From Promethearchaeota archaeon (GTDB lineage: Archaea > Asgardarchaeota > Odinarchaeia > Odinarchaeales > JBHLKK01): DNA of 5,819 bases. Where the stretch lies: contig JBHLPL010000117.1 of assembly GCA_048939465.1 (NCBI GenBank), positions 1 through 5,819 on the forward strand. Direction: 5' to 3'. A program made the position numbers and the translations under genes. Numbering within the stretch: the stretch's first letter is position 1; each line of letters starts with the position of its first letter. The notes beneath the pieces are model-generated. The model worked only from the letters and a program-made list of their open reading frames with translations, searched no databases and was not told where the DNA came from. Below, piece after piece: positions 1-5,819 of this stretch.

Positions 1-345
1 CAGCCTAATGGCAAATTTCCCATTCGGGCTGCAAAAGAGCTTGGATTCACGATGGATCAGATTCAGCCTGGTCTTCTGACTCCAGAGATCGGAAACACGT
101 ATTCTGGTTCGACGCCTCTGGGGCTGGCGGCGACTCTGGACATTGCCAAGCCCGAAGATAAGATTCTCGCGGTATCCTACGGTTCTGGTGCTGGAAGCGA
201 TGCGTTCTATATTGTTGTACAAGATCTAATAGAGGAGAAGCAACCTCTCGCCCCTAAAGTACGCGACTATATTACTCGGAAAAGATACGTTTCCTATAAC
301 TGCTACATAAAGTGGCGACGTGGAATAATTGGGCAGCCAACATAA
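1..345 (+). CDS. hmgS: Hydroxymethylglutaryl-CoA synthase, archaeal type (5'-truncated by window edge)
   Basis: Frame +1 is open from base 1 ([20 protein letters not shown]...), so the ORF-track start at 52 is internal. Conserved archaeal HMGS C-terminal motifs [18 protein letters not shown] and [11 protein letters not shown] are present. Followed by thiolase and DUF35 genes, the canonical cluster. Confidence 0.93.
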
Positions 346-359
346 AAGGGGCGAAAAAG

Positions 360-1514
360 ATGCGGAAAGTTGCTATTGTTGGAGTGGGCATGATCCAAGT
401 AACCGACCACTGGGATAAGTCTCTCAGGACGCTTTTTGCTGAAACAGCATTAAAAACTCTAGAGGACGCTGGAGATCCTAAAGTAGATGCGGCCTTTATA
501 GGCAATATGTCTGCGGAAGAATTTACAAAACAGAAGAATATCGCCACACTAGTCTCTGACTTTTCTGGATTCAGAGACATCCCTGCGACGAGAGTCGAAG
601 CGGCTGATGCGTCCGGGGGGAGTGCTATCCTAGAGGGATTCACTGCGGTTGCATCCGGTCTTTATGATACAGTTCTTGTGGGTGGCGTAGAAAAGATGTC
701 GGAAGCCATTTCCTCAGAAACTACCCAAATACTCTCTATGGCTGCCGATCAAGAATATGAAACCTTCCACGGCCTTCCGTTGGTTGGAGCTGCTGCGATG
801 CTCATGAGACTCTATATGCATGAGTTCAAGGCGACTCGGGAGCAATTTGCAGCTTTCACAGTTCAAATGCATGAAAATGCATCCTCGAATCCCTACGCAC
901 AACTACGATTCAAAACGACTCTGGAGAACGCTTTGGGAGCCCGCCCTATTGCAGATCCTATAACTCTGATGGACTGTGCTCCCGCCGGCGATGGAGCGGC
1001 TGCACTGATCCTTTGCTCTCTGGAAAAAGCTAAGAAAATAACGGATACTCCCGTTCAAATAATCGGAGTTGGTCAAGCTACAGACACACTCGCCCTTCAC
1101 GATCGTGAAGATCTCTTAACTTTTGGGGCTGTTTCAAAAGCTACCCAAAAAGCACACAAGATGGCGAAGACCACGCTGGAAGATATAGATGTGTTCGAGA
1201 TCCATGACTCGTACACGATAACTGGCCTGCTCTCCATAGAAGGCCTGGGTCTTTCAGAAAGGGGGGGTGCAGGAATGCTGGTTGAAGACGGGGGAATTGC
1301 AAAAGACTCACAAATTCCGGTTAACCCAAGTGGCGGACTCAAGGCACGTGGGCATCCGGTAGGTGCAACTGGTGTATATCAAGCGGCAGAGATTGCTCTC
1401 CAGTTACGCGGTGAGGCCGATGGGATGGAGGTCAAAGACGCAGAAATCGGGCTAACAGAGAATATTAGCGGAATGGCCTCACTAGCAAACATCCACATAT
1501 TGAAAAGAGTATAG
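360..1514 (+). CDS. Thiolase-family protein (archaeal acetoacetyl-CoA thiolase-like), with both catalytic Cys positions substituted
   Basis: ATG at 360 gives MRKVAIVGVG, a typical thiolase N-terminus (384 aa). Motifs GGVEKM, DCAPAGDGAAA, EIHDSY and NPSGGLKARGHPVGATG are present. The nucleophile motif reads EAADASG (D83) instead of EAACASG, and HDSY replaces HDCF. Confidence 0.9.
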   Translation: MRKVAIVGVGMIQVTDHWDKSLRTLFAETALKTLEDAGDPKVDAAFIGNMSAEEFTKQKNIATLVSDFSGFRDIPATRVEAADASGGSAILEGFTAVASGLYDTVLVGGVEKMSEAISSETTQILSMAADQEYETFHGLPLVGAAAMLMRLYMHEFKATREQFAAFTVQMHENASSNPYAQLRFKTTLENALGARPIADPITLMDCAPAGDGAAALILCSLEKAKKITDTPVQIIGVGQATDTLALHDREDLLTFGAVSKATQKAHKMAKTTLEDIDVFEIHDSYTITGLLSIEGLGLSERGGAGMLVEDGGIAKDSQIPVNPSGGLKARGHPVGATGVYQAAEIALQLRGEADGMEVKDAEIGLTENISGMASLANIHILKRV

Positions 1515-1520
1515 AGGTTT

Positions 1521-1526
1521 AGGTGA
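1521..1526 (+). promoter_or_regulatory. Shine-Dalgarno-like site for the DUF35 gene
   Basis: AGGTGA ending 7 nt before ATG 1534; complementary to the archaeal 16S anti-SD. Confidence 0.6.
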
Positions 1527-1533
1527 AACAGAA

Positions 1534-1968
1534 ATGAGAGTTCCAATGCGTTGGAGGGAAATTCCCCAACATTATCGTTTAGAAGGATCTAAATGCATAG
1601 AATGCGGCAAAGTGTACTTTCCACCGAAGCTTGTTTGTCCGATCTGCCATTCTACTAGTCTAGAAAAGATCTTTCTTCCTAGAAAGGGGAAGGTAGTGAC
1701 ATTTACGACCGTACGTGTTGCGCCTAAGACCTTTGAGCTCTACGTACCATACACTGTTGCCCTAATTGAACTGGAAGGTGGGACGAGACTGACTGCTCAA
1801 TTAACGGATTGTGACCCCTCGGAGATTTATATTGGAATGCCCGTCGAGACAATCATCCGAAGAATAAACACCGAAGGGAAGACTGGACCGATATTTTACT
1901 GTTATAAGTTCCGGCCTGAACTGGGATCAATGACAACAGATCGATCCAAAGCATCCTCAGAACCATAG
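1534..1968 (+). CDS. DUF35 family Zn-ribbon + OB-fold protein (thiolase/HMGS scaffold subunit)
   Basis: N-terminal CIEC...CPIC zinc ribbon (GSKCIECGKVYFPPKLVCPIC), then an OB-fold with GKVVTFT, PYTVALIELE and IGMPVE. Its position after HMGS and thiolase matches the known archaeal thiolase/HMGS/DUF35 complex. Confidence 0.92.
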   Translation: MRVPMRWREIPQHYRLEGSKCIECGKVYFPPKLVCPICHSTSLEKIFLPRKGKVVTFTTVRVAPKTFELYVPYTVALIELEGGTRLTAQLTDCDPSEIYIGMPVETIIRRINTEGKTGPIFYCYKFRPELGSMTTDRSKASSEP

Positions 1969-1976
1969 TCTCCATA

Positions 1977-1991
1977 TTTTTTAGATTTTTT
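1977..1991 (+). terminator. Probable oligo-T terminator of the mevalonate cluster
   Basis: Two T6 tracts (TTTTTTAGA TTTTTT) just after the DUF35 stop codon. Confidence 0.4.
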
Positions 1992-2000
1992 AGATAATTC

Positions 2001-2006
2001 TTTAAA
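2001..2006 (+). promoter_or_regulatory. Candidate TATA box for the HTH-ATP-cone-NrdD-like gene
   Basis: TTTAAA about 45-50 nt upstream of ATG 2051, in an AT-rich intergenic region. Confidence 0.45.
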
Positions 2007-2014
2007 CTTCTTTT

Positions 2015-2036
2015 GACTATCATTACTATGATAGTC
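2015..2036. promoter_or_regulatory. Perfect 9-4-9 inverted repeat, candidate operator
   Basis: GACTATCAT-tact-ATGATAGTC lies between the candidate TATA box and the start codon, covering the expected transcription start. Confidence 0.6.
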
Positions 2037-2050
2037 GGGTTGAGATCGTT

Positions 2051-4348
2051 ATGCCTAAATCAAGAAAGAGTATTTCTGAAGAGGAACAGACCTCCACGAT
2101 TCTCTCTGCAATTTCTAGCTCGCTGCGATCTGAAATCCTCAAACTTCTAAGTCGTGAAACGTCCCTATCGTTCACGGAGATTATGCAGGGTATCGATATT
2201 GATCCTCGTAATGCGGGTAGATTTGGCTATCACCTACGTGAGCTAAAACGGGCAAATCTCATAACGGGCGGACCGGCAACGGGCTATTCTCTGACACCCA
2301 TAGGAGAAAAAGTAGTAGACTTCATATGGACACTTGAAGATATAAGCAGGAAGTATTTGGATGAAATATTCGTCAGAACTTCAAGAATCTCGATGGAGCA
2401 CTTCGATCGAGGCAAAATAACAGAATCATTAGTAAGAGAAGCCAGTGTTCCGAAAACCCTTGCAGAGAAGATAGCGAAGGAAGCAGAAGATAGACTAATG
2501 AAACTGAAAGTACAGTATCTAACTTCTTCCTTGATTCGTGAATTCGTGAATGCTATCCTCCTCGAAAAGGGTTTTGAAGAATACCGTCATGCACTAACCC
2601 GTCTTGGTCTCCCTGTTTATGATATCACTCAGCTTATCAAGAATCCGTCATTTAAAGCAACCGACTCAAGTCCTGAAATTGTGCATAAATTGGCAGGAGA
2701 TGCTGTATTAGAGCAATACCTCTTTATGAAGATACTCCCTAGAAAGGTCGCAGATGCGCATCTTTCTGGAGCTATTCATATACCGCATGCCAGCTACTGG
2801 GTCTTAAAGCCAAACGAAATTTGCCATGACCTGCATACTTTGCTTCAACGAAATTTCTTTTCGGCAAAGCCTCCTAAAACGTTAAGAGATACCCTTGGTC
2901 AGATATCCATGATTATTGGAAATACACGAGCAAACGTTATTAGCGGGCAGGTTTTTGATCATTTTAACGTCTTTTTGGCACCATATGCGAGGGCAAAGGA
3001 CATAAAAGAAACAAAGAAAGCACTGAGAGTCTTCTTTGCTGAACTGAACAATACCTTCTTCAGTCAAGAGAAACGTCCGAACAGCACTATTCTCCTTGAA
3101 TTCACAATCCCCTCTTACCTCAGAGATACTCCGGCAATTGGACCGAACAATAGGATAGTTGGTACATATGGGGAGTATGCTGATGAAGCCAGTTTCATAT
3201 TAAACGCAATACTGGATATTTTGATGAAAGGCGATATGCTGGGGAGACCTTTCTTCAATCCAAACATCGTACTAAGAATAAGACCTGAAACGAGGGAAAC
3301 CTCTTTACAACTTCTACTGAAATCTCATAAGTTGGCCTCGAAATGGGGAACTCCCTACTTCATAAACATGCGTCCAGATTGGCAGACTCTGAATGCTTGT
3401 TACACCGGGAACCTCACACGTTTAGAATCTTCGTGGAAGAGTAATTGGGATCTGGGTGTCAATCGCACTGGAAATCTTGATTGGGTTGCAGTAAATCTCC
3501 CTCAAGTTGCTATTGAATCGAAGGGAGATGAGGAATCGTTGTTCGGTTTACTTGACGAGTATTTGAACATAATTTACGAAACTCTTACAGTAAAGCATAA
3601 AACAATTTATGAAAGGCTTCGAAAAGATCATCTACTTCCGCTACTCATGCATAATATTGATGGTGAACCTTACTACCGTTTAGAAAACGCAACTCATACC
3701 GTCGCTTTCTTGGGGTTAGATGAGGCCGTTAGAAAGTGCACCGGCAGCTCTATACATGAGGGGAGAGATGCTCTAGATTTTGCCAAGACTATACTAAATC
3801 ACCTGGCCGATTTTGCAGAGAACTCCACTAAAATCTCTGGTTTAAGATGGAACACAATGCAGATGCCCGCAAGTTCTGTTGCACATAGACTTGCGAAACT
3901 AGATGCAGAGCATTTCGGATCCGATAATTCAATTGCACAGAATGCTGGAGCCACACCCTTCTACAGCACCAGCAACATACTCGCGTCCGCCTCAGTACCG
4001 TTCGAAAAAAGAGTGGAACTGGAATCACAAATCCATCCTATGTTGCTGGGTGGGCACATGCTTAGCATTCCTTTATCGGATTCTCGTATTACATCAAAAA
4101 GATTGTTGAAAGCTACCGAGAGAATCTGCGATTCCGATGTTGGTTTCTTTGCCTATAGCAGACGTTTGACTTTCTGCAGCAGGTGTTTAAGCACATATCA
4201 GGGCGTCCAGCAGAAGTGCTCCTCTTGTGATCTGTCTGGCACAAATCTGAAAAGTTTTGACCGAGCGATTGGCACCTACGGACAGTTAGATAAACTAGAA
4301 TCCAGCCTGAAACTCGCAATTATTGGTCAGAATAGATATTCTCTCTAA
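2051..4348 (+). CDS. nrdD: Winged-HTH (ArsR-like) + ATP-cone + class III ribonucleotide reductase (NrdD)-like fusion, catalytic motifs degenerate
   Basis: aa ~15-95: wHTH (SSLRSEILKLLS...SFTEIM...GRFGYHLRELKRANLI...YSLTPIG). aa ~105-185: ATP-cone (VRTSRISMEHFDRGKITESL...LIREFVNAILLEKG). The body has NrdD hallmarks SGQVFDHFNVFLAPY, GRPFFNPN, WGTPYFIN, RTGNLDWVAVNLP, LGGH and a C-terminal CSRC-x10-CSSC Zn site. No NrdG activase gene is in the window. Confidence 0.85.
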   Translation: MPKSRKSISEEEQTSTILSAISSSLRSEILKLLSRETSLSFTEIMQGIDIDPRNAGRFGYHLRELKRANLITGGPATGYSLTPIGEKVVDFIWTLEDISRKYLDEIFVRTSRISMEHFDRGKITESLVREASVPKTLAEKIAKEAEDRLMKLKVQYLTSSLIREFVNAILLEKGFEEYRHALTRLGLPVYDITQLIKNPSFKATDSSPEIVHKLAGDAVLEQYLFMKILPRKVADAHLSGAIHIPHASYWVLKPNEICHDLHTLLQRNFFSAKPPKTLRDTLGQISMIIGNTRANVISGQVFDHFNVFLAPYARAKDIKETKKALRVFFAELNNTFFSQEKRPNSTILLEFTIPSYLRDTPAIGPNNRIVGTYGEYADEASFILNAILDILMKGDMLGRPFFNPNIVLRIRPETRETSLQLLLKSHKLASKWGTPYFINMRPDWQTLNACYTGNLTRLESSWKSNWDLGVNRTGNLDWVAVNLPQVAIESKGDEESLFGLLDEYLNIIYETLTVKHKTIYERLRKDHLLPLLMHNIDGEPYYRLENATHTVAFLGLDEAVRKCTGSSIHEGRDALDFAKTILNHLADFAENSTKISGLRWNTMQMPASSVAHRLAKLDAEHFGSDNSIAQNAGATPFYSTSNILASASVPFEKRVELESQIHPMLLGGHMLSIPLSDSRITSKRLLKATERICDSDVGFFAYSRRLTFCSRCLSTYQGVQQKCSSCDLSGTNLKSFDRAIGTYGQLDKLESSLKLAIIGQNRYSL

Positions 4349-4375
4349 AATTAGATGGGTATCTAGTGTGGAAGA

Positions 4376-4417
4376 TGGTAGCGGGGCCGGATTTATCCGG
4401 ACTGAAAAGAGACCGCT
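4376..4417 (-). repeat. Intronless, degenerate minihelix-like copy of the tRNA-iMet ends (AGCGG...CCCCGCTACCA)
   Basis: The - strand reads AGCGG TCTCTTTTCAGT CCGGA TAAA TCCGG CC CCGCT A CCA. The last 11 nt are identical to the spliced tRNA 3' end and the first 5 nt to its 5' end. It starts 1 nt after the tRNA CCA. Confidence 0.5.
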
Positions 4418-4423
4418 ATGGTA

Positions 4424-4456
4424 TTCCCCCGGGATGACGGTGTGTCTTGCTCCCGA
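4424..4456 (-). other. tRNA intron 6, position 71/72 (33 nt, acceptor stem)
   Basis: CCCC-GC|T-CGGGA...TCCCG-GGGG-AA|T: 4-bp central helix, two 3-nt bulges and a 5-bp intron helix. Removal restores U72, A73 and CCA. Confidence 0.8.
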
Positions 4457-4468
4457 GCGGGGGATGGA

Positions 4469-4498
4469 ATTTCATGGGTGCGGGCCTGCCGCCCCGGA
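4469..4498 (-). other. tRNA intron 5, position 59/60 (30 nt, T-loop)
   Basis: GATGG-TTCA-AA|T...TGAA-AT|T-CCATC: the T-stem is the outer helix and TTCA/TGAA the central helix. Removal restores TTCAAAT. Confidence 0.88.
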
Positions 4499-4512
4499 TT
4501 TGAACCATCGAT

Positions 4513-4535
4513 CTCCCGCAACTCCTCGGAGTTGA
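4513..4535 (-). other. tRNA intron 4, position 45/46 (23 nt, variable loop)
   Basis: CCCG-AG|T-CAACTC cgag GAGTTG-CGGG-AG|A: perfect central and intron helices. Removal restores AGATC. Confidence 0.88.
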
Positions 4536-4543
4536 CTCGGGGT

Positions 4544-4559
4544 ATCTCAGAGCCCCTCA
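4544..4559 (-). other. tRNA intron 3, canonical position 37/38 (16 nt)
   Basis: GGGG-CTCA-TA|T-GAG ggg CTC-TGAG-AT|A-CCCC: a strict BHB. Confidence 0.93.
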
Positions 4560-4576
4560 TATGAGCCCCGCGGGAT

Positions 4577-4589
4577 TTCAGGCCACGGT
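4577..4589 (-). other. tRNA intron 2, position 20a/21 (13 nt, D-loop)
   Basis: CAGG-AG|A-CCGTGG-CCTG-AA|A: 4-bp central helix and two purine 3-nt bulges; flanking helices relaxed. Confidence 0.78.
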
Positions 4590-4596
4590 CTCCTGA

Positions 4597-4625
4597 TTCG
4601 GCTCAAACGCCAATATGCGTCTGGC
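4597..4625 (-). other. tRNA intron 1, best-fit position 15/16 (29 nt, D-loop)
   Basis: TG-GGGT-AG|G-C CAGACGC atattg GCGTTTG A-GCCG-AA|T-CA: central helix 3 of 4 paired, 2-bp outer helix, 7-bp intron helix in register. Shifted junctions (16/17, 17/17a) give no central helix. Confidence 0.7.
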
Positions 4626-4717
4626 CTACCCCACCCCGCTTTCCAGTGTTACATATTACATTAATTGAGAGACAGTGTGAGCCTCTAAGGACATTTCCTG
4701 CCCTGAAATTCTTTTGC

Positions 4718-4747
4718 GAATTGGTGAGTGTTACCTCGACTCAATTC
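4718..4747 (-). other. BHB-shaped hairpin upstream of the tRNA (putative 5' leader)
   Basis: The - strand reads GAATT-GAGT-CGA-GGTAAC-ACTC-ACC-AATTC: 5-bp outer helix, 4-bp central helix and two 3-nt bulges in the correct orientation. Confidence 0.35.
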
Positions 4748-4770
4748 AATATGCTTGTCGTGAAAACATG

Positions 4771-4786
4771 TATTTAAATTCCTCGG
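4771..4786 (-). promoter_or_regulatory. Candidate BRE-TATA promoter for the tRNA transcript
   Basis: The - strand reads CCGAGGAA-TTTAAATA, a purine-rich BRE abutting a consensus TATA; predicted start near 4748. TTTAAA is palindromic, so + strand use for dys cannot be excluded. Confidence 0.5.
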
Positions 4787-4938
4787 AATTCATCTCCACT
4801 CTTTCGGGTGGGGTTTTCCTGGGAGAAGAAAATAAAAGTACCCACTGCTAGATTTCAGTTCATATTCGTGCTTGGATCACTCATTTAAAAGAAAGCTCCA
4901 AGTATTCATTACGAGATTCAAAGCGGTTATCTGAGGTG

Positions 4939-5819
4939 ATGGGATTGAGCAAGCACAGTGATAGGTTTGTTAAGAATATGGAACTTAACCCTGAAATCAC
5001 GGTTGATGAATTAATAGGCGAATTTAGAAAATCGGGAGCATTTGGTGCAGGTAGATTGGGTCTTGCTGCGGAGATACTAGGAAGGATGTTTCGCAAAGAG
5101 AGATTGCTGAAGTTTCTAGGATTGGCGGGTGCGCTGGTTCCAGCCGGCATTCGAAGAATCGTTTCCCGTCTTATTTACGATGGCCTGATTGATGTTTTAG
5201 TGACCACCGGTGCAAATATAACACACGATTTAGTTGAAGCTTTTGGAGAAAGACATGAGAAAGCATACATACAGAAAAATGATTCACAACTCAGAAAGCT
5301 GGGAATTAACCGGATATTTGATATCTATATTAGAGATAGTGCTTTCGAAGCTCTTGAAGATAATATTCAGGCTATTTTAAGCAATATAAGTGAGGAAAAA
5401 CGCATAGACGGACTTGCTGTTTATGAACTAATATGGGAAATTGGGAGGAGGATTAAAGACCGACACTCAATAGTTAGAAGTGCCTTCAAAAAGAAGATTC
5501 CGATATTCTGTCCAGCTGTTACCGATTCTATCTTAGGTCTTCAACTATGGTTATTCAGGCAAAGAGAAAAACTAAACATCGATGTCATAAAGGATTTGCA
5601 GAAAATAATTGACATAGCTTACGAGTCAGAAGAGGCGGGAGTTATAATTTTGGGCGGTGGAGTTCCAAAAAACCATATTCTCCAAACCATGTTAATAACG
5701 GGAAAAGGATTTGACTATGCTATACAAATAACAACTGATAGACCAGAGTCTGGGGGTCTAAGTGGTGCCTCACTTCAAGAAGCCCAATCCTGGGGAAAGA
5801 TTAAATCGGATGCCCTGTG
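4939..5819 (+). CDS. dys: Deoxyhypusine synthase (3'-truncated by window edge)
   Basis: Frame +1 is open to the window end, so it is absent from the ORF track: ...GAFGAGRL...FLGLAGALVPAGIR...LVTTGANITHDLVEAFG...GINRIFDI...IPIFCPAVTDSILG...LGGGVPKNHILQ...DYAIQITTDRPESGGLSGASLQEAQSWGKI. The catalytic Lys of SWGK is at 5797-5799. The start may be TTG 4945, since the SD GAGGTG at 4933-4938 abuts ATG 4939. Confidence 0.95.
   Translation, partial: MGLSKHSDRFVKNMELNPEITVDELIGEFRKSGAFGAGRLGLAAEILGRMFRKERLLKFLGLAGALVPAGIRRIVSRLIYDGLIDVLVTTGANITHDLVEAFGERHEKAYIQKNDSQLRKLGINRIFDIYIRDSAFEALEDNIQAILSNISEEKRIDGLAVYELIWEIGRRIKDRHSIVRSAFKKKIPIFCPAVTDSILGLQLWLFRQREKLNIDVIKDLQKIIDIAYESEEAGVIILGGGVPKNHILQTMLITGKGFDYAIQITTDRPESGGLSGASLQEAQSWGKIKSDAL

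Follow-up and report, generated by a model that had tools for sequence, protein, structure and literature searches.

Non-canonical introns, and several introns in one gene, are known from archaeal tRNA genes spliced at bulge-helix-bulge (BHB) motifs, and the available parts of the literature describe the tRNA genes of Asgard archaea as heavily interrupted (PMC4090602, PMC11291895, bioRxiv 10.64898/2026.10.13.758758). In the accessible portion of a review of the archaeal introns, insertion sites run from 20/21 to 59/60, and a site at 3/4, in the 5' strand of the acceptor stem, is singled out as "extreme" (Sugahara 2008, cited in PMC4090602). In the available text of a 2026 Asgard preprint, a few acceptor-stem insertions are noted, though not detailed, and five per gene is the maximum given (bioRxiv 10.64898/2026.10.13.758758). 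Introns with the relaxed HBh' form of the motif are known for the (alpha-beta)2 and epsilon2 enzymes and need endonucleases of broad specificity (PMC4090602, PMC5829648). Here, we describe an initiator tRNA-Met (tRNA-iMet) gene on the minus strand of a 5,819-nt stretch of DNA from an Odinarchaeia archaeon (assembly GCA_048939465.1, contig JBHLPL010000117.1, positions 1 to 5,819; hereafter the window, to which all coordinates refer). The explanation that best fits the data, and which we consider probable, is that this is a functional gene and the organism's only one for this tRNA, that its sixth intron separates C71 from U72 and is spliced, and that the 3' trailer tethers the severed end.

Read on the minus strand from 4640 to 4376, the precursor is 265 nt long and consists of seven exons, six introns (29, 13, 16, 23, 30 and 33 nt in 5' to 3' order) and a structured 3' trailer. 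Its 5' end at 4640, AGCGGGG UG GGGU AG, is typical for archaeal initiator tRNAs. The borders between exons and inserts were set by comparison with three uninterrupted initiator genes of the same phylum, L010, L021 and L022, which read GGGU-AG(N)CAGGAGAU-CCCG-CGGGG-CUCAUAA-CCCCG-AGAUC-...-CCCCGCUA. The cutting rule was taken from the 37/38 intron of the same gene, CGGGG-CUCA-UA↓U-hairpin-UGAG-AU↓A-CCCCG, in which a 3-nt bulge lies 3' of each strand of a 4-bp central helix and the cut (arrow) falls after the second base of the bulge. The sixth insert fits this rule, reading CCCC-GC↓U-CGGGA...UCCCG-GGGG-AA↓U-ACCA with an inner helix of 5 bp, and has the central helix and bulges that define archaeal introns spliced by the endonuclease EndA. 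A preliminary description of this DNA had pointed to the 33-nt segment, to its GGGG opposite C66-C69, to the bulges GC↓U and AA↓U and to the CGGGA/UCCCG helix; all are found where it placed them. The strict hBHBh' form is absent: the outer helix between ACCA and the bases preceding C66 amounts to 0 bp, because these bases form a strand of the T-stem, and the motif is of the relaxed HBh' form.

A single sequence proves little in this matter. A naive BHB scan of the precursor returned 17 motifs with an inner helix, against 14.8 +/- 5.2 in shuffled sequences, which is not above chance, and it was therefore not used as evidence. The sequence GGGG-NN-UACCA, at 15-45 nt behind a fixed CCCCGC, turned up in 143 of 2,000,000 random 56-mers, and the same arrangement with an inner helix of at least 4 bp in none of 2,000,000. 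At the level of sequence, it is the comparative evidence that is decisive for an intron at 71/72. A BLAST search free of any motif was run against 40 relatives, and the orthologues were then read individually. Five were found, one from the same genus and four from a second Odinarchaeia family, including one in a one-contig genome. In each of the five an insert occupies the corresponding place, GGGG, A-N and UACCA are kept, and the inner helix is rewritten (CAGAAU/AUUCUG in orthologues vs CGGGA/UCCCG here). Pattern scans of genome and metagenome collections added three Odinarchaeia records, a third Odin-type lineage represented by L051 (inner helix CGAG../..CUCG), and one Bathyarchaeia clade of 8 species and ~45 contigs; 21 further matches, which were chance matches in bacterial or other non-tRNA DNA plus a few tRNA fragments at contig ends, were set aside. 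Over 31 distinct intron regions, 95.5% of the cells of the inner helix are paired, vs 33-57% when the partners are slid along each other; eight pairs have changed on both sides, and none of 500 shuffles did as well. Thus the preliminary claim of an intron at 71/72, with U72, A73 and CCA on an exon of 5 nt, holds on comparative grounds, and the covarying introns that it proposed to look for in orthologues are there.

When the seven exons are joined, the product is 78 nt long and is called tRNA-Met(cat) by ARAGORN, in agreement with the earlier suggestion that splicing yields CCCCGC + UACCA. It has the marks of an initiator (A1:U72, A73, CCA, the anticodon CAU and three G-C pairs closing the anticodon stem) and is near-identical to the uninterrupted genes L021 and L022. 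U72 and A73 are supplied by the mini-exon alone. The base that follows C71 in the unspliced RNA is A in the sister family, in L051 and in all members of the Bathyarchaeia clade, and U in this window and in genome G002. Where it is A, unspliced RNA would have A1.A72 and no A73, so that only splicing gives U72. All uninterrupted relatives encode U72-A73, most of them with CCA.

The 71/72 intron resembles the non-canonical BHB introns of Thermoproteales and Asgard archaea in its shortness, its 4-bp helix, its 3-nt bulges and the predicted cut after the second bulge base, as well as in the relaxed HBh' form, the presence of several introns in one gene and of two EndA paralogues in the genome. It differs from them in its site, which lies 5 nt from the end, on the acceptor stem's 3' strand, and outside the sites in the available part of the PMC4090602 list; in that splicing would install U72, the discriminator and CCA; and in a 3' exon that has no partner strand of its own. 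As in the interrupted Asgard tRNA genes described in the accessible literature, the gene belongs to a phylum in which most tRNA genes are interrupted and missed by standard finders. It differs in carrying six inserts, two of them in the D-loop, vs up to five in the preprint, whose available text does not name Odinarchaeia. In the literature on archaeal and Asgard tRNA introns as far as accessible, the supplementary tables of the 2026 preprint aside, no 71/72 site, terminal CCA mini-exon or outer arm of the kind described below was found.

Behind UACCA, every Odin-type gene has a trailer of the same layout: a spacer, GUCUC(C/U), a linker of 4-8 nt, a hairpin of 4-5 bp, a gap of 0-1 nt, CCCCGCU and ACCA. 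The hexamer, the sole conserved linker block in 7/7 of these genes, complements GGAGAC, which consists of G18-G19 of the D-loop exon and the first bases of intron 1b. The resulting helix, P2, is 9 bp long here and in L051 and 7 bp in the sister family, with one compensated end pair (G-C here vs C-G in L051). The second CCCCGCU pairs with A1-G7 in the minimum-energy RNAfold structures of four precursors, forming helix P1, and RNAalifold, given the seven Odin-type precursors, returned unprompted both P1 with the outer copy and the trailer hairpin, in which three of five pairs are compensated across lineages. P1 (7 bp) and the hairpin (4-5 bp) make an outer arm of 11-12 stacked pairs with its own RCCA in 7/7 genes. 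A 7-bp helix, a 3' RCCA, a coaxial hairpin and ~12 bp are also the dimensions of a minihelix, like the acceptor/T arm of tRNA. The loops of the trailer hairpin are not T-loop-like. The base in the discriminator-like position of the outer copy is G (GCCA) in L004 and L005, the inner exon keeping A73. Asgard relatives that lack the 71/72 intron have no such trailer.

The preliminary description had recognized that the intron's GGGG and G4-G7 compete for C66-C69, which is correct, and had concluded that the 5' strand is orphaned, no acceptor stem forming until splicing; it had also suggested that the T-stem might stack on the central helix. It had overlooked the trailer, at 4376-4418, whose second CCCCGCU-ACCA pairs with A1-G7 in both the RNAfold and the RNAalifold predictions, so that A1-G7 is not orphaned while the intron holds C66-C69. 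Nor is the order that it deduced, splicing before the action of RNase P and RNase Z, a compelling one, since an acceptor-like arm is predicted before splicing. P1 and the true acceptor stem are mutually exclusive.

Two observations of narrower range may be recorded next to the trailer. In this genus only, intron 1b and the trailer can form, from 4582-4594 and 4407-4421, a strict-looking BHB with an outer helix AGGAGACC/GGUCUCUU, a central helix GUGG/CCAU and bulges CC↓U and AG↓C, which would cut the trailer 3 nt behind CCA; in G002, a central CCAC compensates. This BHB lacks a conserved counterpart in L051 and in the sister family and was not built upon, and a nested second tRNA (an outer cloverleaf with the loop GUGGCCC) was rejected because it depends on the same motif. 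In another Asgard family, L013 (genome G017) has an insert in or next to the 3' strand of the T-stem (~64/65) of its tRNA-iMet gene and a second CCCCCGCUAC directly behind CCA; its counterparts in sister genomes, L008 and L012, have neither. In L013, too, an intron close to the 3' end may come with a spare copy of the acceptor strand.

Genes of the Bathyarchaeia clade share the intron, which reads A-CAGG...CCUG-GGGG-AA↓UACCA, and have no second acceptor strand. Their 5' leader, GGAGACG and then CGGA, is paired instead to UCCG and then CGUCUCC of the trailer. RCCA comes behind the 7-bp helix GGAGACG/CGUCUCC in 41/44 distinct sequences, and 87.8% of the cells of the near-invariant leader/trailer helix are paired, vs 32-57% when slid. 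In the metagenome contigs L060 and L081, ~55 nt separate the upstream clamp strand GGAGACG..GCGGAC from A1, ~45 nt of them extra sequence, and complementarity is kept; in both, a TATA-like TTTTAATAT precedes the clamp strand. In an even sample of 121 Bathyarchaeia genomes, the intron with leader and trailer occurs in two only (G041 and G043), and 26 other Bathyarchaeia tRNA-iMet genes, read one by one, have a plain CCCCGCUA(CCA) end without such a leader or trailer. That the intron-less genes of both Bathyarchaeia and Asgard archaea lack the clamp indicates that the clamp goes with the intron. A conserved BHB within the clamp was looked for and not found; one exists in this Odinarchaeia genus only. 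At positions -12 to -5, the Bathyarchaeia leader has a conserved GAUCUCAG, the perfect complement of exon sequence CUGAGAUC (3' strand of the anticodon stem and variable loop), and RNAfold pairs the two in L034 and L041.

The trailer hexamer GUCUCC and the ends of the intron (A-CAG...CUG-GGGG-AA) are common to L034, L041, L084 and others of the Bathyarchaeia clade and to L003-L006 and L051 of Odinarchaeia. The tRNA bodies of the Odinarchaeia and Bathyarchaeia genes are typical of their own phylum despite these common elements. This suggests that a module made of intron, mini-exon and trailer may have moved between Odinarchaeia and Bathyarchaeia, perhaps by recombination at the 3' end of the tRNA gene.

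The following course of events can be proposed for the Odinarchaeia precursor. C66-C69 would pair with the GGGG of the intron to form the relaxed HBh' motif, the 5' bulge GC↓U lying between the central and inner helices and the 3' site, AA↓U, adjoining the central helix without an ordinary outer helix. EndA would cut after the second base of each bulge. Once cut free, the 5-nt exon has one potential pair with the rest of the molecule (U72-A1). In ordinary BHB introns, the outer helix keeps the exons together. The 5-nt exon cannot stay bound by its own pairing, and we therefore read the trailer as a substitute for the outer helix. The trailer would be anchored upstream by P2, to the D-loop region, and by the hairpin and CCCCGCU-RCCA, to A1-G7 (P1), and these pairings would hold "UACCA + trailer" on the tRNA body until RtcB seals C71 to UACCA, yielding the A1:U72 pair, A73 and the CCA end. 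The true strand 66-72 would then displace the copy and the trailer would be cut off. The outer arm would thus act as tether and end-guard of the 5-nt exon. Of the enzymes for such a pathway, the genome encodes two EndA paralogues (PF01974; contigs C90 and C139), RtcB, RNase P RNA, RNase Z and an archaeal CCA enzyme. The top RtcB match (contig C31:2961-5708, minus strand) consists of two stretches in a single 973-aa open frame, which may be an intein-containing ligase gene; a second RtcB lies on C78.

Several points weigh against this account. A search of sequencing runs with the window matched DNA runs only (mangrove and sediment metagenomes) and no RNA run. The central helix, CCCCGC and UACCA were fixed by the search pattern, so that their invariance among pattern matches is no evidence; that evidence comes from the six BLAST-linked genes. 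The 3' splice site lacks a canonical outer helix, and cleavage would depend on an EndA of broad specificity, as the two paralogues lead one to suppose. P1 is invariant and hence without covariation, P2 competes with the helix needed for splicing intron 1b, and the covariation of the Bathyarchaeia leader/trailer helix is not significant (2 compensated cells; 145/500 shuffles as good), which leaves conservation, co-occurrence with the intron and the long-leader variants as the support for that helix. Finally, RNAfold still favours the outer copy when the spliced tRNA is folded with the trailer, so that removal of the trailer needs an unexplained step.

Could the 71/72 site not be spliced at all? 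The tRNA would then end in CCCCGC-U with C73 as discriminator, RNase Z trimming the trailer and CCA being added enzymatically. U does follow C71 in this window and in G002, ARAGORN accepts as tRNA-Met a six-exon form ending ...CCCCGCUC, and RNase Z and a CCA-adding enzyme are encoded. An unspliced end ...CCGCU-C-CCA, which the preliminary description had set against its own proposal, is accordingly possible in this genus, but not in the other lineages, where the A after C71 would face A1; the uninterrupted relatives, moreover, all have U72-A73, and a covarying inner helix beside an invariant GGGG-AN-UACCA would go unexplained. We regard the absence of splicing as very improbable. Just as hard to credit is the idea that the outer CCCCGCU-ACCA of Odinarchaeia is the real mature 3' end, with the inner CCCCGC...UACCA lying inside a larger intervening sequence. 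The outer copy is a perfect acceptor strand with a U72-like U, RCCA and an adjoining hairpin, and it pairs with A1-G7 in the minimum-energy folds. Splicing onto it was nevertheless rejected: of the junctions from 65/66 to 72/73, none offers a 4-bp central helix (best 2/4, in all 7 genes). Two species have G as the outer discriminator, the loops of the hairpin differ from T-loops, and in the Bathyarchaeia clade the same intron occurs without an outer acceptor copy. A gene in decay, in which a mobile element or intron inserted at the 3' end left an att-like duplication and the structures are leftovers, seems a shade less probable still. The acceptor 3' strand is indeed directly repeated ~75 nt apart, and the likeness of intron ends and of the hexamer GUCUCC in two phyla suggests a transferable module. 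Yet the 5' end of tRNA-iMet occurs at this sole locus in the 1.96-Mb, 91%-complete genome, and in the closed one-contig relative BLAST likewise found this tRNA-iMet locus only; the exons are all intact, and helices are kept by compensatory changes across families. Insertion may well have been the origin of the locus; its present state is under selection.

A reading in which the intron is real and the outer arm serves chiefly as a built-in guide has more in its favour, and we consider it possible, if less likely than not to be the arm's chief purpose by some distance. The arm would be an acceptor/T minihelix (7 bp + 4-5 bp + RCCA) for RNase P, RNase Z, the CCA enzyme or exonucleases, allowing the ends to be trimmed and protected at a stage when the true acceptor stem is unable to form. 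External guide sequences and acceptor/T minihelices are reportedly substrates of RNase P and of the CCA-adding enzyme, in work ascribed to Forster and Altman in 1990 and to Yuan and Altman in 1994. A three-quarter external guide sequence consists of a pairing strand, a linker, a hairpin, an acceptor complement and RCCA, and the trailer is laid out in the same way. Both architectures come to a 7-bp helix with RCCA behind it (7/7 Odin-type genes, 41/44 Bathyarchaeia sequences), and the stack of 11-12 bp, with a gap of 0-1 nt between hairpin and helix, has the length of an acceptor/T arm. Against this stand the hairpin loops, which do not look like T-loops, and the fact that use by these enzymes is deduced from structure. 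That the 7 bp plus RCCA are reached in two unrelated sequence solutions suggests a second role, in which tRNA-like ends are shown to processing enzymes or exonucleases; the tether favoured above and such a guide would be compatible rather than exclusive.

Comparison with other paired flanks places the arm more closely. With external guide sequences and minihelices it shares a 7-bp helix, a 3' RCCA, a stacked short hairpin and a strand pairing with the 5' end of the target; it differs in being natural, in cis and part of a tRNA precursor, and is known here from sequence alone. The split tRNAs of Nanoarchaeum, Caldivirga and Desulfurococcales and the permuted tRNA-iMet of Thermofilum pendens, where the initiator is likewise affected, also use helices of non-tRNA flanks to hold pieces for EndA and ligase (PMC3218864). 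In these, the BHB lies in the flank helix and the pieces do not follow one another colinearly (PMC3218864), whereas here the pieces are in natural order and the flank helix is not itself the BHB: the seven exons are colinear, on one strand and within 222 nt, and the gene is neither split nor permuted. The Bathyarchaeia version resembles the leader/trailer stems of archaeal rRNA and the extended acceptor stems of eukaryotic pre-tRNAs, in which the precursor of a stable RNA has its 5' flank paired with its 3' flank. Unlike them, the helix ends in RCCA and co-occurs strictly with the 71/72 intron, and in Odinarchaeia the partner is exon sequence and not a leader. The features of the locus are listed in Table 1.

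Table 1. Parts of the tRNA-iMet precursor in the window, in 5' to 3' order (arrows, predicted cuts)
Feature	Position	Strand	Description
Exon 1	4626..4640	-	positions 1-15: 5' acceptor strand, U8 G9, D-stem strand GGGU, A14 G15
Intron 1a, D-loop, 29 nt	4597..4625	-	borders from comparison with uninterrupted relatives; hairpin covaries; strict 4-bp central helix not found at the splice sites
Exon 2, UCAGGAG	4590..4596	-	D-loop with G18 G19; uninterrupted AG(N)CAGGAGAU in L010, L021, L022
Intron 1b, 13 nt	4577..4589	-	CAGG AG↓A ... CCUG AA↓A
Exon 3	4560..4576	-	D-stem 3' strand, anticodon-stem 5' strand CGGGG, CUCAUA (anticodon CAU)
Intron 2, canonical 37/38, 16 nt	4544..4559	-	strict hBHBh'; inner helix 3 bp, outer helix 5 bp
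Exon 4	4536..4543	-	A38, CCCCG, A44 G45
Intron 3 at 45/46, 23 nt	4513..4535	-	CCCG AG↓U ... CGGG AG↓A
Exon 5	4499..4512	-	AUC, T-stem strand GAUGG, UUCAAA
Intron 4 at 59/60, 30 nt	4469..4498	-	UUCA AA↓U ... UGAA AU↓U; not in sister family
Exon 6	4457..4468	-	U60, T-stem strand CCAUC (61-65), CCCCGC (66-71); C66-C69, 5' strand of central helix; G70 and C71, first two bases of 5' bulge
Intron 5 at 71/72 (sixth insert), 33 nt	4424..4456	-	U, CGGGA, 16-nt loop, UCCCG, GGGG, AA
Exon 7, mini-exon UACCA	4419..4423	-	U72, A73, C74, C75, A76
Trailer	4376..4418	-	behind UACCA; holds P2 strand, hairpin and second acceptor strand
P2 trailer strand CGGUCUCUU	4407..4415	-	complementary to AGGAGACCG (4586-4594): D-loop exon 2 and first bases of intron 1b
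Trailer hairpin CCGG-AUAAAU-CCGG	4387..4400	-	directly adjoins outer acceptor strand; T-arm analogue
Second acceptor 3' strand CCCCGCU-ACCA	4376..4386	-	partner of A1-G7 (4634-4640) in helix P1 of the predicted precursor

Run on the unspliced window, neither ARAGORN nor Rfam (E-value mode) reported an RNA gene, because the gene is interrupted. Two mechanical open reading frames that overlap it, at 4323-4535 (plus strand, 70 aa) and 4393-4560 (minus strand, 55 aa), are in all likelihood spurious and might be mis-annotated by gene callers. The neighbouring genes are ordinary archaeal ones: a trio of HMG-CoA synthase, thiolase and DUF35, an anaerobic ribonucleotide reductase and a deoxyhypusine synthase. 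The reductase, NrdD (2051-4348, plus strand), has an N-terminal winged-helix/DUF7347 domain and an ATP-cone before the catalytic domain. All sampled words of the stretch are present in DNA runs of four studies, which shows that it is not a one-off assembly artefact. Genome-wide, the tRNA gene count is only 25 with ARAGORN and 24 with the Rfam tRNA model, many of these genes having long inserts, and the tRNA set is largely hidden from standard finders. A crude screen of the same genome for other genes with a duplicated acceptor strand returned this locus only.

What RNase P, RNase Z, the CCA enzyme, the synthetase and a/eIF2 read of a tRNA is its acceptor stem, its discriminator and its CCA end. 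In this essential single-copy gene, three of these elements would exist only after protein-catalysed splicing, on a mini-exon too short for ordinary exon-exon pairing to hold. Position 71/72 would be a new extreme for an archaeal tRNA intron, and an intron there would account for the failure of standard finders to report an initiator tRNA in these Asgard and Bathyarchaeia genomes. More tentatively, and at odds we would put well short of even, archaea with an intron 5 nt from the 3' end of tRNA-iMet may enclose the whole precursor in an outer acceptor arm of 7 bp and RCCA, stacked to ~12 bp, a natural external guide in cis for the enzymes that process or protect the ends, which would also tether the mini-exon; U72, A73 and CCA would then be installed by EndA and RtcB and not by RNase Z and the CCA enzyme, with GUCUCC marking a transferable module of intron, mini-exon and clamp. 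The outer acceptor-like arm poses a problem of RNA folding, namely how to keep the ends tRNA-like and the pieces together during multi-step splicing, and the presence of one module in both Asgard archaea and Bathyarchaeia bears on the way in which tRNA introns spread.

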